Assembly (NCBI GenBank): GCA_018267955.1
Contig: JAFDXL010000009.1
Coordinates: forward strand, 366,717 to 398,716
DNA: 32,000 bases
Source: Bacteroidota bacterium
GTDB lineage: Bacteria; Bacteroidota; Bacteroidia; Chitinophagales; Chitinophagaceae
Reading direction: 5' to 3'
Under the pieces are notes generated by a model. It saw nothing but the letters and a program-made list of their open reading frames with translations. It was not told the origin of the DNA and made no database searches. The translations under genes were made by a program, and so were the position numbers. Shown piece after piece: positions 8,264 through 24,651 of this stretch (position 1 is the stretch's first letter; every line of letters starts with the position of its first letter).

Positions 8264-9676
8264 TTATAATAATGTAGTAGGACATACATAGTCCGTAACA
8301 GGGAATCTACCTCCGGCTTTTAAAGCTTTAAATCCGCCAACTACATTCACCAGGTTTTCATATCCTCTTGCTTTCATAATGGAGATAAAAATAACAGAGC
8401 GATAACCGGAGGCGCAATGCACATAATATGGCTTACCCTTATCTATAGCCTGCATAGTATCGTTGATATAGTCTAACGGAAGGCTTTCCGCATCTACTAA
8501 ATGTTCGCTCAGGTATTCACTATTCTTTCTTACGTCCAATATATTAACTGGTTTTACCTTCGCAATCGATGCCAATTCCTCATCTGATATAGCATCTATA
8601 TAATCAATCTCTTTACCAGCAAGCTGCCAAGCTGTAAAACCACCTTTCAAAAATCCGATAGCATTGTCGTACCCCACTCGTGCCAGCCTTGTTACCACTT
8701 CCTCTTCCCTACCCTCGTCAGCAACTATTAGCAATGGTTGTTTAATGTCTGTAATTAATGCCCCCACCCAGGGTGCAAAGTTGCCATCAATACCTACATT
8801 AATAGCATTTGGTATAAATCCTTTTACAAAATCCTCCGGAGACCGGGTATCTAATACCAGGGCTTGCGTTTCGTTAGCGGCTGTTTCAAAATCTTCCGGG
8901 CTTAGTTCCTGCTGACCACGCTCCAATACCACATCTATGCTTTCATAGCCCAGCTTATTCATTGCCACATTCATTGCAAAATACCCCGGTGGCGGCATAA
9001 GGCCTGTAGTTACTTCTTTAATAAACTCTGCCTGGGTCATATTTTGCCTCAGTGCATAGTTTATTTCTTTCTGATGCCCTAAGGTATCATAGGTTTCTTT
9101 GCTCATATTTTTGCCACAGGCACTACCTGCACCATGTGCAGGATATACAATAACGTCATCCGGCAACGACATTAGCTTTCGTGTAGATTCATACAATAAA
9201 CCAGCGAGATCTTCCTGTGTAAGATGTGCAGCTTTCTGTGCAAGGTCGGGCCTGCCAACATCCCCAATGAACAAAGTATCACCGCTGAACAGTGCAACAG
9301 GTTTACCGCTTTTATCCTTCAGTAGGTAGCAACTACTCTCCATAGTATGCCCAGGTGTGTGTAACACCTCAAAGCTCACGTCACCTACTCTGAACACCTG
9401 TTTATCTTTTGCTATCAATGCCGGGAACGCAGGTTCAGCATTGGGGCCATATACAATGGTGGCACCGGTTTTGCCAGCAAGATCTATATGCCCGGATACA
9501 AAATCTGCATGGAAGTGCGTTTCGAAAATATATTTAATATTAGCTCCATTTGTCTCGGCTTTTCTTACATATTGATCTACCTCCCTCAGTGGGTCTATAA
9601 TTACAGCCTCCCCATTACTCTCTACATAATATGCACCTTGTGCCAGGCAGCCTGTATAAATCTGTTCGATTTTCAT
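8264..9676 (-). CDS. MBL-fold metallo-hydrolase fused to two rhodanese domains (persulfide dioxygenase-sulfurtransferase-like)
   Basis: Metal motif ETHFHADFVSGH. The C-terminal rhodanese active-site loop is VHCASGYRS. The start is set to MKIEQIYTG (ATG 9676), because the longer ORF to 9739 would run into the operator palindrome. Confidence 0.85.
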   Translation of the reverse strand: MKIEQIYTGCLAQGAYYVESNGEAVIIDPLREVDQYVRKAETNGANIKYIFETHFHADFVSGHIDLAGKTGATIVYGPNAEPAFPALIAKDKQVFRVGDVSFEVLHTPGHTMESSCYLLKDKSGKPVALFSGDTLFIGDVGRPDLAQKAAHLTQEDLAGLLYESTRKLMSLPDDVIVYPAHGAGSACGKNMSKETYDTLGHQKEINYALRQNMTQAEFIKEVTTGLMPPPGYFAMNVAMNKLGYESIDVVLERGQQELSPEDFETAANETQALVLDTRSPEDFVKGFIPNAINVGIDGNFAPWVGALITDIKQPLLIVADEGREEEVVTRLARVGYDNAIGFLKGGFTAWQLAGKEIDYIDAISDEELASIAKVKPVNILDVRKNSEYLSEHLVDAESLPLDYINDTMQAIDKGKPYYVHCASGYRSVIFISIMKARGYENLVNVVGGFKALKAGGRFPVTDYVCPTTLL

Positions 9677-10656: not shown

Positions 10657-12918
<2,262 letters not shown>

Positions 12919-12939
12919 GATTAATAATAATCATAAAGG

Positions 12940-12972
12940 CAACTCCCTGCTATATGCGGGGAGTTGTCTTTT
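12940..12972 (+). terminator. Rho-independent terminator of katG
   Basis: CAACTCCC (12940-12947) pairs with GGGAGTTG (12959-12966), followed by TCTTTTA. Confidence 0.7.
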
Positions 12973-13052
12973 ATAGATGGCTATAAGGTAACATTCATGT
13001 AGTCGATCTAACATATCTTTATCTATTGTAAAGAATAATAATCACTATCATC

Positions 13053-13532
13053 ATGCATCATACACGAGTAGCACTCAGACAAACCGAGATACCTGACCTG
13101 GAACGTTTCTTTCAGTTTCAACTTGATCAAGAGGCTATTTATTTAGCGGCATTCACGCCAAAAGATCCAAATAACAAAGAAGCTTACTTAGAAAAATATA
13201 CCAGGCATCTTGGCGACCCAACCATCAACATGCAAACTATATTACTAGGCGAAACTATCGTCGGCAGTATAGCCAAATTTGTAATGGAAGGAGATACAGA
13301 AATCACTTATTGGATTGATAAAAACTTTTGGGGTAAAGGAATCGCTACAGAAGCCCTGAAGAGCTTTCTGACGATTGAGAACTCAAGACCCATCTTCGGG
13401 AGAGTGGCGTTTGACAATATTGGCTCGCAGAGAGTACTGGAAAAATGCGGCTTCCTCAGAACCGGAAAGGACAAAGGCTTTGCGAATGCGCGGCAAGCAG
13501 AGATAGAAGAATATATTTATAAGCTAATGTGA
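13053..13532 (+). CDS. GNAT-family N-acetyltransferase
   Basis: 159 aa with an acetyl-CoA-binding-like motif WGKGIATEALKSFL and the downstream segment NIGSQRVLEKCGF. Confidence 0.8.
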   Translation: MHHTRVALRQTEIPDLERFFQFQLDQEAIYLAAFTPKDPNNKEAYLEKYTRHLGDPTINMQTILLGETIVGSIAKFVMEGDTEITYWIDKNFWGKGIATEALKSFLTIENSRPIFGRVAFDNIGSQRVLEKCGFLRTGKDKGFANARQAEIEEYIYKLM

Positions 13533-13651
13533 TGTGAAGCATCGATTAGTACCTACTTTCCCATATTCGACCGCTTTTTTGACGACATATACAATAAGCG
13601 GGCATTTTTTATTAGATTTGCACCGCTTTAAATAGCAAACACTGAGTCGCT

Positions 13652-13725
<74 letters not shown>

Positions 13726-13730
13726 CTTAT

Positions 13731-13756
13731 AAGGGTTACTCGATTGAGTAACCCTT
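13731..13756 (+). other. Perfect 11-bp-stem hairpin directly after the tRNA (tRNA terminator and/or att-associated inverted repeat)
   Basis: AAGGGTTACTC (13731-13741) pairs with GAGTAACCCTT (13746-13756). AAGGGTTAC recurs at 13843-13851. Confidence 0.5.
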
Positions 13757-13858
13757 ACGTATGTTTACGCAATTTTACTATAATTGGATGATTTTCAGAT
13801 TATTATAACAGATACAGTTTAAACTGGCATCCTACCTTTACAAAGGGTTACAGATTTT

Positions 13859-13882
13859 TAATCGAGCAATTAATCGAGCAAA
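13859..13882 (+). repeat. Tandem 12-bp repeat TAATCGAGCAA(T/A) x2 abutting the integrase start
   Basis: The copies occupy 13859-13870 and 13871-13882. The integrase ATG is at 13885. Confidence 0.7.
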
Positions 13883-13884
13883 TT

Positions 13885-15198
13885 ATGCTGTTACCTCTTA
13901 AAGCCGTAATGCTTAACCGCCCATTGAAGGATGGCACACATGTCATCTATTTTCAGTACTGCTATTCATCTGAAAAACGCGTTTTATTAAACACCGAGAT
14001 TTCTATCCCCAAGCAATTCTGGAATAGTAAACGACAGTCGATTTCTAAATCTCTTCCGTTAGAGTTTGGGATTGCTGAAAATCTAAACTGTGATCTTGCA
14101 CGGATGAAAAAAGTGATTGAAGCACTCATTAGCTTGTCCAATCAATCCAATTCGTTAAATCAAGGACAATTTGTAAAGGATAGATTTAAGCCATCGTTGA
14201 AATTGGAAAGCCTACAAATTGCAGAGGTAAATTCCCATGCATTGATTAAAAAATTACCTAATCTCTTTCAACAAATAGATAATTACATCAAATCGAAGGA
14301 AAAAAAAGTTGTTAGTACTGCAGCATTTCACGCACTAAGAGACCGACTAAGTCAATATCAAACTCATACAAAGAAAGAAGTAACATTTTCTAATCTTGAT
14401 TTCAATTTCTACTCAGATTTTGTTGACTTCCTTACTTATGATTACGTTTTAAAACGAAAAAAAGTCCCTGAATACGGACTTAAATTGAGTACAATTGGTT
14501 CAACAATAAAAAACCTTAGAGTATTCATCAACGATAGAGTAAGAAGAAAAATAGTCCCACCAATTGACCTGGGCGATTTCAAAATATTGGATGAAGAAGC
14601 AGATGCGGTATATCTGACCTACGATGAAGTTGCAGCTATCTACAAGTTAGATCTTACTAATCATTCAGAATTAGAATTAAGCAGAAACTTGTTTGTACTA
14701 GGCTGTCTAACAGGCTTGCGGTTCTCTGATTATTCTACGCTAGAATTTAAAGACTATAGAAAAGGCATGTTATTTAAAAAGACAAATAAACAGGATAACT
14801 GGGTTGTTATCCCCTTACGGCAAGAAGCAAAAGAAGTATTTATACGTTTGTTTGAAAACGGGAAAGAAAGAATATCAAATCCTATTTTCAATAAAGAAAT
14901 CAAAGAAATAGCTGCGATGGCTGGGATTACAGAAAAAGTAACTTTTAGCTACAAAAAAGGTAATAAGGACATTATTATTACGAAATCCAAAGCTCAATTT
15001 GTCACTTCTCATACATGCAGACGCTCTTTTGCGACAAATGAATATCTTGCTGGAACGGATGTAAATTTAATTATGAAAATCACTGGCCATAAAACATTTA
15101 AAGACTTCTTTAAGTATATTAAGGTGAGCCAAGAGGAAGCAGCCAAACGCATCCAAGAGGTCTGGAGTACAAGGGATAACATGAAAGCATTTTCATAG
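13885..15198 (+). CDS. Tyrosine-type site-specific integrase (Bacteroidota phage-integrase family)
   Basis: Catalytic residues sit in context: GLRFSD (Arg), HTCRRSF (His-x-x-Arg), GHKTFKDFFKYI (His...Tyr). The N-terminus looks like an arm-binding domain. The start could instead be the Met at 13909. Confidence 0.9.
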   Translation: MLLPLKAVMLNRPLKDGTHVIYFQYCYSSEKRVLLNTEISIPKQFWNSKRQSISKSLPLEFGIAENLNCDLARMKKVIEALISLSNQSNSLNQGQFVKDRFKPSLKLESLQIAEVNSHALIKKLPNLFQQIDNYIKSKEKKVVSTAAFHALRDRLSQYQTHTKKEVTFSNLDFNFYSDFVDFLTYDYVLKRKKVPEYGLKLSTIGSTIKNLRVFINDRVRRKIVPPIDLGDFKILDEEADAVYLTYDEVAAIYKLDLTNHSELELSRNLFVLGCLTGLRFSDYSTLEFKDYRKGMLFKKTNKQDNWVVIPLRQEAKEVFIRLFENGKERISNPIFNKEIKEIAAMAGITEKVTFSYKKGNKDIIITKSKAQFVTSHTCRRSFATNEYLAGTDVNLIMKITGHKTFKDFFKYIKVSQEEAAKRIQEVWSTRDNMKAFS

Positions 15199-15306
15199 TC
15201 ATCGATTGTTTTGGATACGTAACTTTATTGCGGGTGCGGGATTCAAAATTTGATTTTGGCAATGGCGCACGAGTTCGATTTCTGTTTTGGGCACTTAGAC
15301 CAAATC

Positions 15307-15343
15307 AAAAAACCTCAGTCCTTACAAGGATTTGAGGTTTTTT
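15307..15343. terminator. Bidirectional rho-independent terminator between the integrase and the R-M/ATPase/HNH operon
   Basis: AAAACCTCAgTCCTtacaAGGAttTGAGGTTTT is flanked by an A-run on the left and a T-run on the right. Confidence 0.75.
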
Positions 15344-15404
15344 CTTTTTGTACTCGAACGTTTTTGGGACGACTTTTTGTAAAAACAAAGAAATAATATG
15401 GCTT

Positions 15405-16415
15405 TTAAATTAATCCAGCCTCTCTACAAGCGATGTAATATGGTATTTTAAGAAAATTATCATTGGCAATTTCATTGTTTCTAAATAACTCAAGTTTAGA
15501 TTGAAACACTCTATCATTTGTACGCCTATTTACCCCCATAGCAATGATAGTGTCGAACCAGAATTTCGCATCTTCACTGCATATTTTATCCACGTATCTT
15601 TCTTTAATTCCAAACAACTCCATCCAAGTATCAATTTCCTCCTTATAATGACTATTAGTAATTTTCAGTTCAACCTCATTGGGTTTTAGATTCTTTATCA
15701 CACCAGTAACCTTAATCTTTATATTTAGTTTTGGTTTCTTTGATGCAAAAGGATAAAAAGCTCTCCTTCCAATCTTAGTTTTAGTATTTATTGGGTCTTG
15801 AGTGAGTTTGTAGGAAGTATTGCAAGTCTTACATATAGGCGCTAAGTTATTAGGGTTAACCGAATTAAATGGATAAACATCTTTGGGAAGGTAATGATCA
15901 AAAGCATCTCTTTTAGTTAGTCTATGTGACATAATATCTGAGATGCCACAGAAAGGACATTTTTCGGCACAATTAGTTTTTAGGAAATCATCGTAATAAC
16001 CTTTTATATCTCCACACACATTTTTGAAAGCAGCTTTTTTGAGTAATTCTTTGTATAACAATTTGAAAAAACTCTCTAGTTTAACCCTCAAGGGTTTATC
16101 AATCTTTGCAATGGCATCATATAACATTGGCGTTTTAGCACCTGTACATAATTCTTTAATAGCATTATTGTTTTTAAACCCCATTTTTAGCTTAGCTAGA
16201 TGCTTTTTCTCCAATCCATTGCAAATTCGATATATCTGCTGTATTGGTGTCCTTAGTAATTTTTTCTCAGCTATAACCATTGGCTGAAATTCCGAATGTA
16301 ACTTACCTATCGAAAAATTGCCCTTAGGTTTACACCATACATCTAGAACTAAATGTTCAATATAAGTTTGTAGTTTATAGAAATCATGACTTATAGGCTT
16401 ATATGTATAAAGCAT
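15405..16415 (-). CDS. HNH (beta-beta-alpha-Me) nuclease-domain protein, 336 aa; PtuB-like partner of the upstream ATPase
   Basis: Central motif CPFCG-x14-DHYLPKDVYP-x8-NNLAPICKTCNTSYK (aa 153-203, nt 15807-15959). The N-terminal ~150 aa and C-terminal ~130 aa have no motif I recognise. The start lies 2 nt after the ATPase stop. Confidence 0.75.
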   Translation of the reverse strand: MLYTYKPISHDFYKLQTYIEHLVLDVWCKPKGNFSIGKLHSEFQPMVIAEKKLLRTPIQQIYRICNGLEKKHLAKLKMGFKNNNAIKELCTGAKTPMLYDAIAKIDKPLRVKLESFFKLLYKELLKKAAFKNVCGDIKGYYDDFLKTNCAEKCPFCGISDIMSHRLTKRDAFDHYLPKDVYPFNSVNPNNLAPICKTCNTSYKLTQDPINTKTKIGRRAFYPFASKKPKLNIKIKVTGVIKNLKPNEVELKITNSHYKEEIDTWMELFGIKERYVDKICSEDAKFWFDTIIAMGVNRRTNDRVFQSKLELFRNNEIANDNFLKIPYYIACREAGLI

Positions 16416-16417
16416 TT

Positions 16418-18037
16418 TTATTTTTTTTGTTTTAGAGGTTTAATTTTTTTCAACTGATCTATTGTCAGTAATTTTTCGACTGAATCACCTAGACTATTGG
16501 CTTTCAGTATTGCAGACTGCAAATCAACTGTTCCCTTCTTGTAAGATTGTACTATTTTATCTAACTTTTGATTAGCTAACTCGGATATTGTTTCTGATTT
16601 TCCAAATACCTTCATCGTAATAAGACTAACAGCAGCCCCAAAAGTGTTAATTTTGGGGGTTGAAGTTTTTCCATTTTTAAATATGAAAACGCGCTCAGGT
16701 CTACAATCTGAAACAATAAAAGGAGAATGTGAAGTGATTAATATCTCCTGTTTTCTGATCTTATCAGATTGTACTTTTTCAATTACAGTTTTGTTAATTA
16801 AGCTAATAAGCTTCGATCTCCAATCAGGATTAAAATGTGTTTCTGGTTCGTCGTAAAGCAATAATGAACCAGAGGTGTTTAGCAATATCATGCTTCCTAG
16901 TACATGCATTAATTGATGCTCTCCATCACTTAGGTTTTTATACTTGATTAGCACTCCATTAGTTTTTCTCAATCGCATTTTATCTATACAAAAATTTAGA
17001 TCTTCTCTTGGTGGGGTAGGTATCATGTGTAGTAGATTATCATATGTATTGCTTGGTGCTTCCTTTATTTTTCTACGAACAGATACGGGTTCCTGATGAA
17101 TGTTCAAAAGATTGAGGTAATAGAAATCACGGAATAATATAAGGGCAGAACCAAATTTTCTTTTAAATGCTAAACGTGTTTCCTTATTAACGAAGTAGTC
17201 AAGTTTCAATTCATTTCCCGTCTCTTCATATGTAGTTGCACACTCCTTCAACTTTTCTATTGCAACTTCTAATGCACGGGCAATCTTTATTCTATTGTTC
17301 TTATAATTTGTGTATCTAATAATTACCTCAAAACTATCCAAAGGATCCTCTTTGTCAAGTTTCAAAGCATTGGTTATTACTGAAACTTCATTTTCTTCAG
17401 AAAAGAGACAATTGATTAAAGTTATGAGGTGACTTGTTTCATAATCCAAAAAGAAAAGTCTCGTAAGACCCAGTTCAAGATTATAATCTGCTTGCTGTTT
17501 TTTTTCTAGCTGCTCAAAATATTCATATTTAAGCTTAATAAAAGGATTACTAATTAATTCATTTTGCCCAGAGCTATATCCGATTATATGATTGGGCAAA
17601 ATAAACATAGCTGGATCAGTAGATTCTTCTACTCGTACCCTACCATCAGATTCTAAAGTTATCTTGGGGAGTTCGTTAGCCGATTTTACAATGGTTACTA
17701 TGGTTTCTCTCGAACCTTCCCAATCAAGTGTTTCTATGTTTTTCAGATTGCTGTTTCTAGCTAATTCATAGGTAATATCTATTTGATAAGTTATTTCAAA
17801 GCCAAAGGGTGTGCTGTGCTTTTTTTTATTTTTCCCTTCAGACTCAGAGTATTTTTCCAGATAATAAAATACCTCAGCGACTACTTCTAACAGATTGGAT
17901 TTTCCAGAACCGTTTAAACCTACAAGACAAATAGGCTCAAGTTTATTATCAAACAATTCCACCTTATCAAACCGGAAGTTTACCCCCGCATCTAAGCTCC
18001 TGAATTTGGTGAGCAGTTTAAGGTTTAGCAGTCTCAT
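16418..18037 (-). CDS. ABC/SMC-type AAA ATPase, 539 aa (restriction-system-associated; PtuA-like)
   Basis: Walker A GLNGSGKSN, Q-loop GYSSGQNE, ABC signature LSDGEHQL, Walker B LLLYDEPETHFNP and H-loop ITSHSP. An ATGA overlap links it to the hsdS stop. Confidence 0.85.
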   Translation of the reverse strand: MRLLNLKLLTKFRSLDAGVNFRFDKVELFDNKLEPICLVGLNGSGKSNLLEVVAEVFYYLEKYSESEGKNKKKHSTPFGFEITYQIDITYELARNSNLKNIETLDWEGSRETIVTIVKSANELPKITLESDGRVRVEESTDPAMFILPNHIIGYSSGQNELISNPFIKLKYEYFEQLEKKQQADYNLELGLTRLFFLDYETSHLITLINCLFSEENEVSVITNALKLDKEDPLDSFEVIIRYTNYKNNRIKIARALEVAIEKLKECATTYEETGNELKLDYFVNKETRLAFKRKFGSALILFRDFYYLNLLNIHQEPVSVRRKIKEAPSNTYDNLLHMIPTPPREDLNFCIDKMRLRKTNGVLIKYKNLSDGEHQLMHVLGSMILLNTSGSLLLYDEPETHFNPDWRSKLISLINKTVIEKVQSDKIRKQEILITSHSPFIVSDCRPERVFIFKNGKTSTPKINTFGAAVSLITMKVFGKSETISELANQKLDKIVQSYKKGTVDLQSAILKANSLGDSVEKLLTIDQLKKIKPLKQKK

Positions 18038-19827
18038 ATATTGGTATTAATTGTTACGAAATACATGCCATCATTCAAATTTTTCGTCAACACCTGATTA
18101 TTAATATATCCAAATTCAGCAACTGACTCATTATGATTTTTATCTACAAATACTTGTTTCAATATTTTTTGCCTTAACATATCAAAAACAATGTTTTTCA
18201 AAACCTCATATTGATATTCATATCTTTTTGCCACTGCAAATTTTAAGTCACTAAAACTGAAATATTTGTCCTTATACTTACTATTCAGAATATTTCTAAT
18301 TGCGTCTATATCCAATTCAGCGAAAAAAAGGCTATCAAGACTTTTAACAATTGCTTTTTTACCTTTAATAGGTTTTATATTATCAATAGGTAAATCACTA
18401 ACAATTTCTATTGTTTTATTGGCTTGTGAATCTTCTCTTTGTTTTTCAATCGGTGCTAAACTACCCTTCACGGCTTCTTGTATCTCTTCCCAATCATGCC
18501 CTATTAACTTATGTATTTCATCCCTGCTAATTAATCCCTCTTTAGGCAATTCCATTCCTTCAAAAGGGTCACCGTATCGCTTGTCTTCTTCGGGGGCGGC
18601 AGGGCCAGAGAAGTTGTTAGGTTCTTCTTCTATGGGTACTTTGCTAAGGTCTAGCTCGCCTTTGAAGGCACGCTGGCTGAGCGAGCCATACAGATTCTCC
18701 AACTCTTGCAGACTGGCATTATATTGTTGTTTAAGTGCTTCTGTTTTTTCTACAATTGAAGCGAATTTGTTTTGGAGATCAATATCAGGAAGTATTACAT
18801 TGTACTCTCCAACAATAGTTAAGTTTAAGTTTTCCTGGTTTCCACCTCTCCCTAAACTTCTCAGTTTTTTGTATGAGTTAATTAGTAAATGAAATAGGAA
18901 ATTAGGATTGAAATATCGACTAGGCAATATTGCTGCACAAGCTTGATTAGTACTGGCTATGGTCTTCAATAGTGCAACCTTCCCTCTTGTAATTCCTTGC
19001 CCATACATTGCTAATAATACTGTATCTGGATTGTACAATTTACAGTTAGTTTCTTTTAAAGCTAAATCTGTAATTTTTTCTTCAGTGTCGTAGATGTAAC
19101 CCCAATCTACTTCAGTTGTTTTAACCCAATTATGCTTACCGTTATAATACAAACTTTCATTTTGTCTACTTGGGGTAGCTCCAGTGCCTATTTCGGTTAA
19201 ATTTCCTAGTTTGCGTTTCTCCCACCCCTTCTCATTCCTCACAGGGTCGCCAAACATATCCAGAAAAATAGATTTCAAAAACTCATCCAGCAGCTTGATA
19301 GTTTCTTTTCGTTGTGCTATCAGTTTTTCTGCTTTGCCAAGTATTGTGGCTATGCGTTTCTGGTCATCATAGTTGTCTGGGATAGGGATATCTAATGATA
19401 ATAAACTTGAAATATTGAAACTTGCCTGATTAACTGATTTTTTTGTTATTCTTTTTAGCCTACTCTTAAAATAGGGTGTTCTAAAATAATAGAATGCATA
19501 TTTGGGGTATAGCACATACCTATCAGCCTTTAAACAAAGCAAATTCATTCCGTGAATGATGTCAATGTTCTTAATATCATAATAAGCAACTTTCCCTAAG
19601 TGCAACTCACTATTGATATGGGACATTAATATATCGCCTTCTTTTAAATAGTAATCTTTAAAAGAATCATCCTTTACATTAGCATATCCTAATCTATTTA
19701 GATCAATAGTCCCATCTGCTATAGTTTCAATTCTTGTAATAGGTACCCCATCAGCAATTTTATCTTGCTGAATATTAGCACCGTTTCTAATTGAAAGAAA
19801 TATGTTACCAATCTTCTCCTTCCTCAT
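18034..19827 (-). CDS. hsdS: Type I restriction-modification specificity subunit HsdS with ~200-aa C-terminal extension
   Basis: There are two target-recognition domains. They are separated by a conserved helix (DDQKRIATILGKAEKLIAQRKETIKLLDEFLKSIFLDMFGDP) and followed by a second one (LQNKFASIVEKTEALKQQYNASLQELENLYGSLSQRAFKGELDLS). The protein is 597 aa, against roughly 400-450 for a typical HsdS. Confidence 0.9.
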   Translation of the reverse strand: MRKEKIGNIFLSIRNGANIQQDKIADGVPITRIETIADGTIDLNRLGYANVKDDSFKDYYLKEGDILMSHINSELHLGKVAYYDIKNIDIIHGMNLLCLKADRYVLYPKYAFYYFRTPYFKSRLKRITKKSVNQASFNISSLLSLDIPIPDNYDDQKRIATILGKAEKLIAQRKETIKLLDEFLKSIFLDMFGDPVRNEKGWEKRKLGNLTEIGTGATPSRQNESLYYNGKHNWVKTTEVDWGYIYDTEEKITDLALKETNCKLYNPDTVLLAMYGQGITRGKVALLKTIASTNQACAAILPSRYFNPNFLFHLLINSYKKLRSLGRGGNQENLNLTIVGEYNVILPDIDLQNKFASIVEKTEALKQQYNASLQELENLYGSLSQRAFKGELDLSKVPIEEEPNNFSGPAAPEEDKRYGDPFEGMELPKEGLISRDEIHKLIGHDWEEIQEAVKGSLAPIEKQREDSQANKTIEIVSDLPIDNIKPIKGKKAIVKSLDSLFFAELDIDAIRNILNSKYKDKYFSFSDLKFAVAKRYEYQYEVLKNIVFDMLRQKILKQVFVDKNHNESVAEFGYINNQVLTKNLNDGMYFVTINTNI

Positions 19828-21416
19828 TTCACTGTTATCATTAAATCTTTAAGGCCATCAATAATTTCATTTTCTAATCCACCCTTACCATCTTCTCCAA
19901 TAAGCTTATTCAAAATCACATTAGGTGCATCATATACAACCTCTTCATACTCTTCTTCTTTATACTTGTTTATGCTCAGGTCATATTCGTTATCTGCTAT
20001 TTCTGCCCTCGACACAAAAAAGTGCTGTGCTTTGCGGTCTATCTGTTCTTCCGTATGGCGTGCATGGTAGGCAGCTATTATCCGGTGCAGATCGCCATAG
20101 TCGCGTTCACCATTAGGCAGGCGCAGCTCGTTGCGCTTATCGTCAAGGCTGCGCCCATCACTTTCCATATCGTAGTACCATACATTGGTGGTTTCGCCCC
20201 CTTTCGTAAATACCAGTATAGCAGTAGCCACACCCGCATAGGGCTTAAACACGCCGCTTGGCATGTTTATTACCGCCTTCAGTTCGCACTTGTCTATCAG
20301 TATCTTCCTTAGCTCGGCAAATGCTTTTGCACTGCCAAACAGCACGCCTTGCGGCACCACCACACCTGCTGTGCCACCTATACGCAGCATGCTGTATATA
20401 CGCTCTACAAACAGCAGTTCGCTCTTGGTAGTGCTGATGCTGAAGTTGGGGTTCAGGTCGCCCTTGTCTACACTTCCGGTAAAGGGCGGGTTGGCCATTA
20501 CAATGTCATATACCCCTTCTTCGTTATAGCTCTTGCTTAGGGTATCCATATAGTCTATCCTTGGCTTGGCTATACCATGCATCATCAGGTTCATAAGCCC
20601 TATGCGTATCATGGTAGGGTCTATATCAAAGCCATAAAAAGACTGTTCGTTCAGTATCTTCTTTGCATCTTCGCTCACCAGCTTGTCGGCCATTGTGCCA
20701 CGCACAAAACCATTGTCGTCTTTTTCTCTGTATTGCGGGCTGGTAAATTCTGTAATCAGGTATTTGTATGCAGCCAGCAAAAAGCCAGCAGAGCCACAGG
20801 CAGGGTCTGCTATCTTATCGCCCAGCTTGGGTTGCACCAGCTCGGTTATCATTTCTATAATATGCGTGGGCGTGCGGAACTGTCCGTTTTTACCCGCCTG
20901 GCTCAGCTGGCTGAGGAGGTATTCGTAAAAATCGCCCTGCGCATCTATAAACCTGTTTTCGGTCTTCAGCTCGTCATATATCTCGTCTATGGTTTTTATG
21001 GCTTCTGTCAGCAGGCTGGGCTTAGGAATCAGAAATACCGCATTGGCCATATGTTTGGTAAAGAAAGAGTTTTCATCACCATCCAACTGGCGGATGAACG
21101 GGAATACCGAAGATTGCACAAATACCAGCATTTCTTCGGCAGGCATACGTTTAAAATAGCTCCAGCGCAGTGTTTGTTTATCCAGCTCGCTACCTTCTTT
21201 AGCACCCGGTGGCAAAAACGTTCCGTCAAAAACAGATTCAAAACGTTCTTCCAGAAAAGCTGCATTGCTCTCTTTTATTTTATCGTTCTCATCCAACTGT
21301 TTCATAAACAGCAGGTAGGTTATCTGCTCTATGGCATTGAGGGGGTTAGATATACCCCCGCTCCAGAATTTATCCCAAAGAGATGATACTTTACTTTTTA
21401 AGGAAGGTGTAAGCAT
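19824..21416 (-). CDS. hsdM: Type I restriction-modification DNA methyltransferase subunit HsdM (N6-adenine)
   Basis: SAM-binding motif DPACGSAGFL and catalytic motif VMANPPFTGS. It overlaps hsdS by ATGA and hsdR by TAATG. Confidence 0.95.
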   Translation of the reverse strand: MLTPSLKSKVSSLWDKFWSGGISNPLNAIEQITYLLFMKQLDENDKIKESNAAFLEERFESVFDGTFLPPGAKEGSELDKQTLRWSYFKRMPAEEMLVFVQSSVFPFIRQLDGDENSFFTKHMANAVFLIPKPSLLTEAIKTIDEIYDELKTENRFIDAQGDFYEYLLSQLSQAGKNGQFRTPTHIIEMITELVQPKLGDKIADPACGSAGFLLAAYKYLITEFTSPQYREKDDNGFVRGTMADKLVSEDAKKILNEQSFYGFDIDPTMIRIGLMNLMMHGIAKPRIDYMDTLSKSYNEEGVYDIVMANPPFTGSVDKGDLNPNFSISTTKSELLFVERIYSMLRIGGTAGVVVPQGVLFGSAKAFAELRKILIDKCELKAVINMPSGVFKPYAGVATAILVFTKGGETTNVWYYDMESDGRSLDDKRNELRLPNGERDYGDLHRIIAAYHARHTEEQIDRKAQHFFVSRAEIADNEYDLSINKYKEEEYEEVVYDAPNVILNKLIGEDGKGGLENEIIDGLKDLMITVK

Positions 21417-24211
21417 TATGCTGCTATTGTTTGTATAAAGTTTATTATTTCTTCAATTTCTTTTTGAGAGAATACACCACGTACCCCATCGGGGTGAATA
21501 CGTGTAAAGGGTGCATTGATAAGGTCTTTTTTGGAAGCTGAACCTTTTTCCAGCAAAAAATTCCTGAGCAGGCTCAGAAACTCCAGTTGCCTTACAGACA
21601 GATAGCTGTGTTCGGCTATAAAATTATCGAAAGCTTTTGATACCGTTTCGGCAAATGTTTCCAGTATTTCAAGCCCCAATACGTGTTTTACAAAGGCAAT
21701 GAGCTGTGCCTTTCTGTTATCGTATACCCTGCGAAGCAGGTCTACCGTTATGTGGGGGTGTTGCTGGTGCAATTCCTCAGCGAGCATTTCGGCTTCTTGT
21801 TCGGTAATCGTACCGCCCTGTTTTAGTTTTTGCAATATAGGGCTGGATAGCACCATTTCATTTATCTTCTGTTCTACCAGTTGCCTGTAGTTGGCTACCG
21901 TCAGCCTTTCGTGTTGCGGGCCAAACTCTACATATTCTTTGGCTATGGTGACATCCTTCAGGTTTAGCTTTTCAGGGCTCAGTGGCGCAACAAAAGAGTC
22001 TATAAATTTCATCAGAGGCGCCAGCTTCTCAACAAGCTCATCCATACTTTCTTCTGAAATGACAGACCAGAAATGATTGGTCTGGCTTCGTTGTATGATG
22101 TCCTTTTCATTAGCCACTATATTTACAGACAATGGCAATTCTCCTATTTCTTCAACAATGCTGTCTTTTAAAGCTTCAAACTTGTCTTTATCATTACTGA
22201 GATGTGCCAATGAAATTTCTACAATATCCTTCTCAAATCGCATGGCTTTGTAGTCTACCCCAACAATGGTTCGCATCAAGGGTTTTACCACATTTCGCAA
22301 AAACACAATTTTATCATCATTTAACGCCAACCAAAATCCGGGGTCATCTAATCGCTGCAAATCAGATTTGGCATCCATTATGACAACAGAATTTTGCGGC
22401 AATTGTGCAATCTGAGCCTGCAGTTTGTCTACCTCCTTTCGGGTAATTGCTTCATCTTTTAACTCAATTGCCTTTTCAATCTTATCGAGCCTTACACCAA
22501 ACAACCTGACAGGTAACGGTATTTGTGGCCTTAATTCTTTGCCTTTAGGATTCAGCTTGAAATATTCGAAATTGTCCCAACAGTCTAATATCAGAAAGCC
22601 GTCTTTGGTCGTACACCAAGGCTTTATTTTATCTTTTTCCAGCAACCTTGTTCCCCTGCCTATCATTTGCCAGAACTTAGTATAAGAGAATACCTGTTTT
22701 ACAAAAACAAGATTCTGCACTTCTCTTACATCTATACCTGTATCCAGCATATCTACACTGATAGCAATACGAGGCATATCTTTGTTGGTAAACTGATCTA
22801 ACAATCCGCCCTTACCATGTACCCGAGGGTCATCACTAACAATTACTTTAGCCAGATCTCCCTTATGTTCAGGATAAAGTGCATCGAAAACTTCTTCTAT
22901 ACGCCTCGCATGCGCCTTGCTGATGCAGAAAAAGATAGTTTTACCAGGCAATACACCATTAGCATCTTTGATGCTTTCTTCCATAAACTCTCTGACAATA
23001 AGTGCATTGGTACCCTTATTGACAACAGTCTTCTCTATTTCTGAACCTTCATAATTTATTTCATCAACATCCTTTCCTTCATGCAATAATTTCTTTTGAT
23101 CTTCTAGGCTGATAGTGCGTTTATTAATGCCTTGTTCCAGAAATTTTGTTTTGATTTTCATTACCTGAAAATCTGACAAATATGGTGGCACGTGGGTTAC
23201 TGCCTCTTCGTATGAATAAGCAAATGTTGGAATTCCATCTTCACACTCAAACAACTGGAAAGTATTATGGTCTATAACATCAGTTGGGGTAGCCGTAAGC
23301 CCTAAAGTAATAGCACCAAAATAGTCAAGTATTTCACCGTATGTATTATAAATGCTGCGATGGCTTTCATCCACAATTATCAAGTCAAAAAAATGGGGAG
23401 ATAGGCCATTCTTCTCATCTCTAATAATATTCAGCATTGTTGGATAAGTAGAAACATATATCCGCCTGTCTTTGGCAATTGTTTTCTCTCCTTGTTTCGG
23501 CCATCTGGGCTCATTTGGCAAATGTTCTTTAAAAGCATCCAATGTCTGCGATTGCAAAGCAATTCTATCAACCAAAAACAGCACTCTTTCTGCCCAACCG
23601 GCACGCATTAAGGCATCTACCAATCCTATACAAGTTCTGGTTTTACCTGTACCAGTAGCCATCACTAAAAGAAACTTTCGTTTCCTTTTCTCCACGGCTT
23701 CCATTACACTTCTTATTGAAGCTATTTGATACTCTCGGCCAGCAATTTTTGTATTGATTAACTCACCAGCTAAAGACTTTCTTGCTTTGCGGATATATTC
23801 ATACCTCTCTAAATCATCTCTAGTAGGAAAACCATGCACTTTACGTGGCGGGTAGTTTTCTAAATCCCAAAAGAAAATATCATTTCCGTTGGTATAAAAA
23901 CAGAATGGTAATACTCCCTGTTTCCGTTGTATATGGTAACAATATTGTTTAGCTTGTTCCCTCCCCAGTGCAGCGTCTACAGAAGTCTTTTTAGCTTCAA
24001 CAACAGCTAGTATTTTGCCGTCTCTTCCTAATAAGCTGTAATCGCTAAACTGGCGACCATGGTATTTTGTTGGAGGTTCTGTCACTCCGTTAGGAAGTCC
24101 GACCTCAATATCATACTCTTCAATAACCTGCGTTCGGTCAGATACACTCCAGCCTGCTTCTGATAGCCTTTTGTCGATTATCTCTTTTCTAGTATGTTTT
24201 TCGGTGCCCAA
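21416..24211 (-). CDS. hsdR: Type I restriction endonuclease subunit HsdR (931 aa)
   Basis: N-terminal PD-(D/E)xK-like motif (DYSLLGRDGKILAVVEAKK). Helicase motif I is MATGTGKT and motif II is IIVDESHRS. The apparent start codon is TTG at 24211. Confidence 0.9.
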   Translation of the reverse strand: MGTEKHTRKEIIDKRLSEAGWSVSDRTQVIEEYDIEVGLPNGVTEPPTKYHGRQFSDYSLLGRDGKILAVVEAKKTSVDAALGREQAKQYCYHIQRKQGVLPFCFYTNGNDIFFWDLENYPPRKVHGFPTRDDLERYEYIRKARKSLAGELINTKIAGREYQIASIRSVMEAVEKRKRKFLLVMATGTGKTRTCIGLVDALMRAGWAERVLFLVDRIALQSQTLDAFKEHLPNEPRWPKQGEKTIAKDRRIYVSTYPTMLNIIRDEKNGLSPHFFDLIIVDESHRSIYNTYGEILDYFGAITLGLTATPTDVIDHNTFQLFECEDGIPTFAYSYEEAVTHVPPYLSDFQVMKIKTKFLEQGINKRTISLEDQKKLLHEGKDVDEINYEGSEIEKTVVNKGTNALIVREFMEESIKDANGVLPGKTIFFCISKAHARRIEEVFDALYPEHKGDLAKVIVSDDPRVHGKGGLLDQFTNKDMPRIAISVDMLDTGIDVREVQNLVFVKQVFSYTKFWQMIGRGTRLLEKDKIKPWCTTKDGFLILDCWDNFEYFKLNPKGKELRPQIPLPVRLFGVRLDKIEKAIELKDEAITRKEVDKLQAQIAQLPQNSVVIMDAKSDLQRLDDPGFWLALNDDKIVFLRNVVKPLMRTIVGVDYKAMRFEKDIVEISLAHLSNDKDKFEALKDSIVEEIGELPLSVNIVANEKDIIQRSQTNHFWSVISEESMDELVEKLAPLMKFIDSFVAPLSPEKLNLKDVTIAKEYVEFGPQHERLTVANYRQLVEQKINEMVLSSPILQKLKQGGTITEQEAEMLAEELHQQHPHITVDLLRRVYDNRKAQLIAFVKHVLGLEILETFAETVSKAFDNFIAEHSYLSVRQLEFLSLLRNFLLEKGSASKKDLINAPFTRIHPDGVRGVFSQKEIEEIINFIQTIAA

Positions 24212-24345: not shown

Positions 24346-24651
24346 CTATTCATTTTTAATAAGGCCTTCAATATCTGCCCATAAATAGAAAACCCTGGAT
24401 TTAATTTTATAAGGTTTCAACACGCCCTCTTTTGCCCATTGATGTAGAGTTTGACGACTAACCTGCAGTAGTTTGCATACCTCTTCTGATTTGAAGATCG
24501 GCTTTTGTGTAAATCCGGTTACTGAAAATTCTACCCTGTCATACAATTTCTCTTTTTTCATATCTGCCAACTCGGTTCGAATTAATTGTCTCATTTTTTC
24601 CCATAGTTCTTCTTGTGACATAGGAATCAAAAAAGGCGTCTTATTATCCAT
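24346..24651 (-). CDS. Helix-turn-helix (excisionase/MerR-like) DNA-binding protein
   Basis: The C-terminal segment FKSEEVCKLLQVSRQTLHQWAKEGVLKPYKIKSRVFY is typical of Xis-type HTH proteins on Bacteroidota mobile elements. Confidence 0.75.
   Translation of the reverse strand: MDNKTPFLIPMSQEELWEKMRQLIRTELADMKKEKLYDRVEFSVTGFTQKPIFKSEEVCKLLQVSRQTLHQWAKEGVLKPYKIKSRVFYLWADIEGLIKNE

Follow-up and report, generated by a model that had tools for sequence, protein, structure and literature searches.

In the window (a 32,000-nucleotide stretch of contig JAFDXL010000009.1, from a Bacteroidota bacterium of the Chitinophagaceae), the genes hsdR, hsdM and hsdS of a type I restriction-modification (R-M) system run directly into two further genes, which encode an ABC-type ATPase and an HNH nuclease. 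A survey of related loci revealed that the constant partner of this ATPase-HNH pair is hsdM-hsdS, not hsdR, and that the specificity subunit in these loci carries a C-terminal tail, which we propose on sequence grounds to be family-specific and a candidate docking site for the pair. Since the pair always sits directly after the recognition genes of one type I lineage, it probably serves the type I system as an additional anti-phage arm and is not there by chance.

All five genes of the window are on the minus strand and form one unit (Table 1). The hsdR stop and the hsdM start have one base in common (TAATG), hsdS overlaps both hsdM and the ATPase gene, each time by ATGA, and a 2-nt gap separates the ATPase gene from the HNH gene. 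Open reading frames (ORFs) and junctions are exactly as given in the preliminary description of the window, a note made from the letters alone. A terminator-like hairpin behind the HNH gene closes the unit (–20.1 kcal/mol, z = –3.75 against shuffled sequences). A simple terminator scan found nothing like this hairpin within the operon: on the minus strand between 14800 and 25500 it returned two weak 5-bp candidates only, of which one is in hsdR and the other upstream of hsdR. With 8 hits in total the scan was at chance level (8.2 expected), in agreement with the earlier claim that a strong terminator appears only after the HNH gene.

The identity of all three type I subunits was confirmed by Pfam, PADLOC and NCBIfam, and each has the features of its class. 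HsdR contains an HSDR_N domain, a ResIII/SF2 helicase (143 bits) and an EcoEI_R_C domain (91 bits), and its N-terminal PD-(D/E)xK-type motif is kept (D57...E72-A-K74). HsdM matches N6_Mtase (205 bits), with motif I DPACGSAGF and motif IV NPPF at residue 309. HsdS has two Methylase_S stretches that end at about residue 395, followed by approximately 200 residues without a domain assignment.

The ATPase belongs to the NCBIfam family TIGR04435, ‘restriction system-associated AAA family ATPase’ (396.8 bits against a cut-off of 300, E = 1.7e-118), and aligns with it end to end (residues 1–532 on profile positions 1–566 of 568); its GenBank record (MBS1780241.1) bears the same name. That family name covers the ATPase and its association with restriction only; no description of the HNH partner, the HsdS tail or a function was found. 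The complete set of ATPase motifs announced in the preliminary description was located: Walker A (G40–S47, including K46), the Q-loop region YSSGQ (154–158), the signature LSDGE (369–373), Walker B LLLYDEPE (392–399), the D-loop (400–404) and the H-loop TSHSP (435–439), all of them invariant or almost so in an alignment of 20 family members. The best PADLOC model was PtuA1 (PDLC00293, 172 bits); other PtuA models gave 40–80 bits, and the NCBIfam PtuA equivalog NF041760 gave 31.6 bits against a cut-off of 500. When the 20-member profile was compared with the PDB, PtuA-type chains ranked first (retron I-A PtuA 9kjx, Septu PtuA 8ee4 and retron Ec83 9e8z; E-values from 2e-10 to 1e-7), with matches in the C-terminal half only, where they take in the signature motif, Walker B and the H-loop as well as the C-terminal domain behind it. 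AriA of PARIS was the next-best solved relative (E = 1e-5), and Rad50 matches were weak and restricted to the P-loop (Walker A). Judging from these comparisons, the ATPase appears to be PtuA-like, that is, related to PtuA, with Septu membership not clear-cut.

The HNH protein, a ‘hypothetical protein’ in GenBank, has the finger C153-x-x-C156-G, D173-H174, N190, C195-x-x-C198-N199 that had been read from its sequence, and these residues are invariant in an alignment of 22 sequences, as are, outside the finger, C90, W264 and two residues (F321-L322) of an NFLK motif close to the C-terminus. The HNH motif is kept in 154 of 160 family members. A search of 5.8 billion proteins gave 88 relatives, nearly all of them 335–375 aa long, which align with the protein from end to end at 28–57% identity, and in an exhaustive search the profile matched 426 clusters at E ≤ 1e-30, 1136 at E ≤ 1e-10 and 5809 at E ≤ 1e-3 among 1.84 billion cluster representatives. 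An AlphaFold2 model of high confidence (mean predicted local distance difference test score, pLDDT, 90.5; predicted template-modelling score 0.85) divides the protein into an N-terminal helical part (residues 13–148), the HNH core (150–205), a beta part (206–255) and a C-terminal helical part (258–332). Foldseek found no significant match for this model in the PDB (best E 0.88) or BFVD; PtuB was not recovered although the PDB library includes several PtuAB entries. Comparison of the family profile with PDB sequences gave chance coiled-coil matches only and no PtuB.

Pfam HNH scored 17.9 bits on the window protein, below its cut-off of 21.4; there was no NCBIfam family for it and no PtuB- or TIGR02646-type match at E ≤ 0.01. 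PADLOC PtuB models reached 32 bits over the 64-aa finger only (residues 143–210), and the best PADLOC matches were PDC-M01B (58.8 bits, residues 135–212) and PDC-M62B (46 bits, residues 51–274). With its score confined to the finger and with neither an NCBIfam nor a PDB fold match, we rejected the protein as a PtuB. It belongs instead to a full-length family of its own, on sequence evidence a distant sister of PDC-M01B and not of PtuB, for which Pfam, NCBIfam and PADLOC v2 all lack a model. The label ‘Septu-like’ in the preliminary description was therefore half right: it suits the ATPase, by its PtuA1 score and PDB ranking, and fails for the nuclease. The accompanying suggestion of a divergent, undescribed subtype is supported. 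A 587-aa protein (P0169) joins the ATPase's N-terminal half, up to and including the Q-loop region, in frame to the HNH protein from about residue 96; this apparent fusion is most likely a deletion derivative and not of the Rosetta-stone kind.

We investigated the genomic context of the pair in 164 loci, of which 80 came from species-representative genomes, 80 were metagenomic and 4 were obtained by exact protein look-up. The species scan had yielded 216 relatives among 185,579 species, and 80 of those loci were taken. ORFs were scored with hidden Markov models (HMMs) built from the operon's own proteins, and the denominators below are loci with enough upstream DNA. The ATPase gene lies directly upstream of the HNH gene in 126 of 128 loci, hsdS lies upstream in all 104 and hsdM in all 98; hsdR is present within the locus in 75 of 82. 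The order R-M-S-ATPase-HNH is kept on a single strand throughout. Signals of co-translation are conserved as well: in 103 loci one nucleotide belongs to both the ATPase stop and the HNH start, and hsdS and the ATPase gene share an ATGA overlap in 69. Of the two loci in which the ATPase gene does not precede the HNH gene, one (L007) is an ORF-calling artefact, and the other (L097) has R-M-S, then a 178-aa DUF4145-like ORF (9109–9645) and an HNH gene with a degenerate motif, and no ATPase. The only candidate for an R-M-free context is locus L110 (384–4718). There the gene before the pair encodes 570 aa with DUF2326 as the C-terminal domain, and the 2.1 kb available on the upstream side of the ATPase gene show no hsdMS; the contig ends about 0.4 kb before the DUF2326 gene.

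About 25 loci contain extra genes, which occupy the gap between hsdR and hsdM (RhuM-Fic, KilA-N, or Schlafen/AlbA_2-HATPase_c_4-HTH) or that between hsdM and hsdS (DUF1016/YhcG PD-(D/E)xK); loci L009, L034, L042, L044, L054, L074, L101 and L131 are among them. This embedded cargo comes and goes, while the ATPase-HNH pair stays. The earlier picture of a pair ‘welded onto’ a type I operon has to be corrected accordingly: the pair is no add-on and forms a constant component of the lineage. The proposal that it is a candidate defence module working with the R-M complex gained support, both from the hsdS-ATPase-HNH layout of essentially every related locus and from a family name that refers to restriction.

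The loci are spread over Pseudomonadota (Citrobacter, Kosakonia, Nitrosomonas europaea, Burkholderia), Bacteroidota, Cyanobacteria, Bacillota (Paenibacillus), Chlorobi (Chlorobiaceae), Nitrospirae and Lentisphaeria, and one is in an archaeal (Promethearchaeota) metagenome-assembled genome. The ATPase and HNH genes occur in 96 of 5426 complete E. coli genomes (1.8%), where the PGAP annotation pipeline names their products ‘restriction system-associated AAA family ATPase’ and ‘HNH endonuclease’; in E. coli O111:H11 strain 8D the five-gene operon, at 804485–813387 of NZ_CP077469.1, is within an integrating conjugative element. Two plasmids carry the pair, and no phage record with it was found. 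Across 70 complete loci, median identity to the window proteins is 66% for HsdR and 56% for HsdM, compared with 32% for the ATPase and 34% for the HNH protein, and such faster divergence of the pair is typical of arms-race components. HsdR is the most conserved protein of the operon, and its nuclease motif is kept in 76 of 76 full-length copies.

The residues of HsdS beyond the Methylase_S stretches turned out to be a regular feature of the lineage. In every HsdS of the related loci the C-terminal helix AFKGELDLS is followed by an extension of 111–284 residues (median 140); that of the window is unusually long, with 211 aa past AFKGELDL (residues 387–597). It begins with a variable, often acidic or proline-rich linker and ends in the consensus F-x-F-x-x-L ... 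Y-[DE]-x-[IV]-K-x-x-[IV]-F-x-x-L-x-x-G-x-L-x-Q-x-F-D ... I-x-L, represented in the window by Y-E-x-L-K-x-I-V-F-x-x-L...L-K-Q-V-F...V-T-I. The motif was found in every subclade, including the window, the loci without hsdR and the HsdS of locus L082, which is short (352 aa) and comes from a different M/S family. The tail co-varies with the ATPase-HNH pair across two different M/S families, and the HsdS of the sister PDC-M01 locus of E. coli, which ends at 396 aa, has none. A profile of the tail returned merely 15 short HsdS fragments from the 5.8 billion proteins, and the long window tail as a query gave one match. Outside its terminal motif the window tail has almost no relatives; the metagenomic locus L100 shares a DKRYGDPFE stretch with it.

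A model of a typical tail (pLDDT 61) has 40 disordered residues at the start, then four helices and a beta hairpin. All of its Foldseek matches are winged-helix domains; none is significant (best E 0.26). Among them are kleisin domains bound to heads of SMC (structural maintenance of chromosomes)-type ATPases (ScpA 4i99_C, MukF 7nyw_D and JetA 8dk1_E). We regard this modelled, kleisin-like resemblance as a lead and not as a result.

Linkage of the pair to hsdM-hsdS does not depend on hsdR. Seven of the 82 evaluable loci have no HsdR homologue within 9–10 kb (L002, L043, L081, L082/L083, L088, L125) and are flanked by housekeeping or unrelated genes. HsdM keeps NPPF in L002, L043, L081, L088 and L125. 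In contrast, the clade of L082 and L119, which sits inside glycosyltransferase clusters, has LPIH aligned to NPPF and no [DNS]PP[FYW] anywhere in the protein, so that its HsdM, by sequence, is probably an inactive methyltransferase. The altered hsdM genes (4817–6256 in L082, 2785–4224 in L119) still precede a tail-bearing hsdS, the ATPase gene and the HNH gene. Since a methylase without NPPF can hardly serve modification, M-S of this clade looks like a scaffold or a sensor. Locus L125 encodes a 1746-aa DEAD/ResIII helicase (12600–17840) 1.5 kb downstream of the HNH gene, which could be an alternative motor subunit.

The pair was compared with known defence systems that resemble it. PDC-M01 and PDC-M62 are untested candidate cassettes in BREX, DISARM and type I R-M loci (Payne et al. 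2024, 10.1101/2024.01.29.577857). The order HsdR-HsdM-HsdS-PDC-M01A-PDC-M01B of E. coli E7476 matches the architecture of the window, PDC-M01B is homologous to the HNH family over some 170 residues, which comprise the finger and the next domain (hhalign probability 97.6%, E = 2.8e-12), and PDC-M62B aligns with the window HNH protein over some 220. However, while the true PDC-M01 proteins of E7476 score 809 and 357 bits with their own models, no member of the HNH or ATPase family (22 members, five subclades) exceeds about 70 bits with the PDC models, and a full-length HMM match is absent; for the window ATPase the scores are 70 bits (PDC-M62A) and 58 bits (PDC-M01A), and the ATPases of the family do better with a PtuA model than with either. 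The window pair shares the type I association of these cassettes and differs in standing at the operon end, after hsdS, and not between the R-M genes. HMM searches of both proteins, proposed as a check in the preliminary description, place the ATPase in TIGR04435 and, among PADLOC models, nearest to PtuA1, and the nuclease nearest to PDC-M01B/PDC-M62B. By these comparisons the pair is a family apart, within a superfamily in which PtuA-like ATPases and HNH proteins form cassettes attached to type I systems. The arrangement of E7476 is a second five-gene layout in E. coli and probably the more common one; it was reached through a short hsdR match present in about 400 E. coli genomes, a count that refers to the hsdR match and not to the PDC-M01 pair.

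Septu and the PtuAB of type I-A retrons (Ec78/Eco7, Ec83) share with the window two adjacent, coupled genes, an ABC ATPase gene followed by an HNH nuclease gene, and in retrons the pair is likewise attached to a separate nucleic-acid-handling module that could restrain it. In these systems PtuB is held between the C-terminal domains of PtuA and is ATP-regulated (PMC12065111), retron-Eco7 sequesters PtuAB, with tRNA-Tyr being degraded on infection (PMC12673091, PMC12640716), and Septu cuts tRNA-Tyr in the variable loop (PMC13096335). The differences from Septu are that the HNH protein of the window is not of the PtuB type, having 270 further residues in conserved domains of its own, and that Septu is an autonomous two-gene system, whereas the pair described here follows hsdM-hsdS wherever upstream sequence suffices, with L110 as a possible exception.

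PrrC/RloC, too, is an ABC-type NTPase that controls a nuclease and is encoded right after hsdS in a type I locus. It is, however, a single polypeptide with a C-terminal anticodon-nuclease domain, not two proteins with an HNH nuclease, and it is located between hsdS and hsdR. No PrrC/RloC model was among the matches listed by the family scans (PADLOC, NCBIfam), and to our knowledge PrrC/RloC is not accompanied by an HsdS tail. PrrC occurs embedded almost only in type I systems; EcoprrI keeps it silent, and the T4 protein Stp releases it (PMC12707154; 10.1101/2024.01.29.577857). In PARIS (AriA-AriB), a system for which the anti-restriction proteins Ocr and Stp act as triggers (10.1101/2024.01.29.577857), an ABC ATPase also holds a nuclease; the effector there is a Toprim protein, where the partner in the window is HNH, there is no linkage to hsdMS, and the sequence match is weak (AriA models, 52–62 bits). 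MADS is excluded by scores of 24.3 for MAD3 (NF047739; cut-off 420) and 115 for MAD2 (cut-off 720), and by five genes against the eight of its locus.

These observations seem to suggest a PtuAB-like effector that is tethered to and controlled by the M-S core and acts as its guard, a reading that we favour tentatively and give something short of an even chance. The ATPase and the HNH protein would assemble as PtuA and PtuB do, with the nuclease between the ATPase C-terminal domains, and the complex would dock through the HsdS tail on M2S1, the methylase-specificity complex, and stay silent there. A phage that disables or occupies M2S1, for example with a DNA-mimic anti-restriction protein, would cause the ATPase to switch state and the nuclease to be freed or activated; the nuclease might then cut either DNA or, in the manner of Septu and retron-Eco7, tRNA, and so stop the infection. 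Such a role would be analogous to that of PrrC in EcoprrI and to the restraint of PtuAB by type I-A retrons. Guarding fits best with the clade that lacks both hsdR and the methylase motif, since M-S can there be only bait or scaffold. A more specific version, in which the M-S core is the sensor, the PtuAB-like pair a dedicated effector and the tail a kleisin-like winged-helix domain that binds the ATPase head, with hsdR optional and the methylase a dead bait in one clade, we consider doubtful.

Several points weigh against the guard. Defence activity, complex formation, trigger and substrate are all things that we infer; the tail model is of low confidence, its fold matches are not significant, and the contact of the tail with the ATPase is a prediction. 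The argument from the dead methylase draws on a single small clade (L082/L083/L119), hsdR of the ‘hsdR-less’ loci may be elsewhere in the genome, and those of these loci that keep NPPF fit a methylation-dependent restriction role. In addition, a long and flexible tether is no less suited to recruitment to DNA than to allosteric silencing.

The last two points lead to the rival that survives best, although we judge it unlikely: a second restriction arm, in which M2S1 on unmethylated sites recruits the tethered ATPase-HNH complex to cut foreign DNA under ATP control. The pair would then be an alternative R module, redundant in five-gene operons and replacing HsdR in four-gene operons. It is consistent with this that hsdM-hsdS and not hsdR is the invariant partner, that some operons do without a nearby hsdR, that most of those retain the NPPF methylase which a self-protecting R-M system would need, and that a flexible linker with a small docking domain fits the delivery of a nuclease to a DNA-bound complex. 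Septu PtuAB is reportedly active on DNA in vitro, according to work by Li and colleagues from 2024. The in vivo target that recent work assigns to PtuAB, however, is tRNA-Tyr and not DNA (PMC13096335, PMC12673091). In the L082/L119 clade, which has neither hsdR nor the methylase motif, a DNA nuclease guided in this way would attack the host, and the invariant nuclease motif and top conservation of HsdR argue that it is not being replaced. The apparent loss of hsdR carries less weight if the gene lies elsewhere, and L125 has its large helicase close by.

It is improbable that the pair is an autonomous Septu-type system hitch-hiking in a type I defence hotspot, where co-transfer would help both. 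Type I loci do carry independent systems, such as TgvAB (PMC11411939), DarTG2 (PMC12255303) and many cassettes (10.1101/2024.01.29.577857), and the PtuA-like ATPase, the variable cargo of the related loci and the L110 pair with no visible hsdMS upstream would all be expected of a passenger. Yet independent cargo is patchy, whereas hsdS and hsdM accompany the pair in every evaluable locus, in fixed order and with conserved stop/start overlaps, and of the true Septu systems no more than 0.7% lie embedded in Hma (10.1101/2024.01.29.577857). Nor would a passenger account for a tail that co-varies with it in two M/S families and is missing from the PDC-M01 HsdS. Highly improbable is a non-defence accessory that manages R-M by processing or repairing HsdR-made ends in the manner of Rad50/SbcC, or by limiting self-restriction: the strict link with a system that generates double-strand breaks, the end-processing activity of SbcCD and Rad50-Mre11 and the weak Rad50 matches at Walker A speak for it, but the best relatives are the defence ATPases PtuA and AriA, 539 aa are too few for a coiled-coil insertion of SMC/Rad50 length, the pair persists without hsdR, where no breaks would arise, and its divergence, fast against that of HsdR and HsdM, fits conflict and not housekeeping.

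Parts of this were known: the ATPase family was named for its association, the sister cassettes already figured in a list of candidates for defence, and guarding is an old concept. The HNH family, the near-absolute five- or four-gene architecture across phyla, the HsdS tail and the variants without hsdR or with a dead methylase are new, and literature searches found no paper on this operon and no description of any of these. If the guard reading is true, a widespread type I lineage is a five-part machine, and current defence-system finders take no account of its last two genes. The pair would be the second case, after retrons, of a PtuAB ATPase-nuclease co-opted by another immune module, and the second obligate R-M ‘guardian’ after PrrC, this time with an identifiable tether, so that the coupling can be tested by deletion of the tail; natural E. 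coli hosts make direct testing in that species possible. The hsdR-less and dead-methylase variants would be natural experiments on a restriction system turning into a sensor. If the sensor reading is also true, it would define a new class of immune system, with an R-M recognition module turned partly or wholly into a decoy sensor for anti-restriction proteins, in parallel to the co-option of PtuAB by retrons.

Table 1. Coordinates of the operon, its surroundings in the window and the E. coli comparison locus
Feature	Position	Strand	Remarks
hsdR, type I restriction subunit	21416-24211	(-)	931 aa, TTG start
hsdM, N6-adenine methyltransferase subunit	19824-21416	(-)	530 aa
hsdS, specificity subunit	18034-19827	(-)	597 aa
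ABC-type PtuA-like ATPase gene	16418-18037	(-)	539 aa
HNH nuclease partner gene	15405-16415	(-)	336 aa
HsdS C-terminal tail (aa 396-597)	18037-18642	(-)	variable linker, then conserved end motif
Terminator-like hairpin closing the five-gene unit	15307-15343	(-)	A6 and T6 flanks
tRNA-Arg(TCT)	13652-13726	(+)	island edge
Tyrosine integrase, Bacteroidota-type	13885-15198	(+)	after tRNA-Arg(TCT)
Small HTH_17 gene (excisionase/AlpA-like)	24346-24651	(-)	just upstream of hsdR
E. coli E7476 PDC-M01 locus (L166)	NZ_CP035817.1 305441-314343		HsdR 1137 aa, HsdS 396 aa

The operon of the window is part of an integrated island, as indicated by the tRNA-Arg(TCT) and tyrosine integrase genes at the edge and by the HTH_17 gene upstream of hsdR. 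A direct repeat of more than 10 nt of the tRNA-Arg 3′-end, which would mark the far boundary of the island, was looked for and not found. The GC content of the hsdM stretch is 0.49, compared with 0.31–0.35 for the hsdS, ATPase and HNH genes; together with the higher conservation of HsdR and HsdM, this contrast could reflect either a mosaic origin or strong constraint. Just before the tRNA gene there is a 746-aa ORF (10678–12918, GC content 0.51) with two peroxidase-domain stretches, catalase-peroxidase-like and unrelated to the operon.

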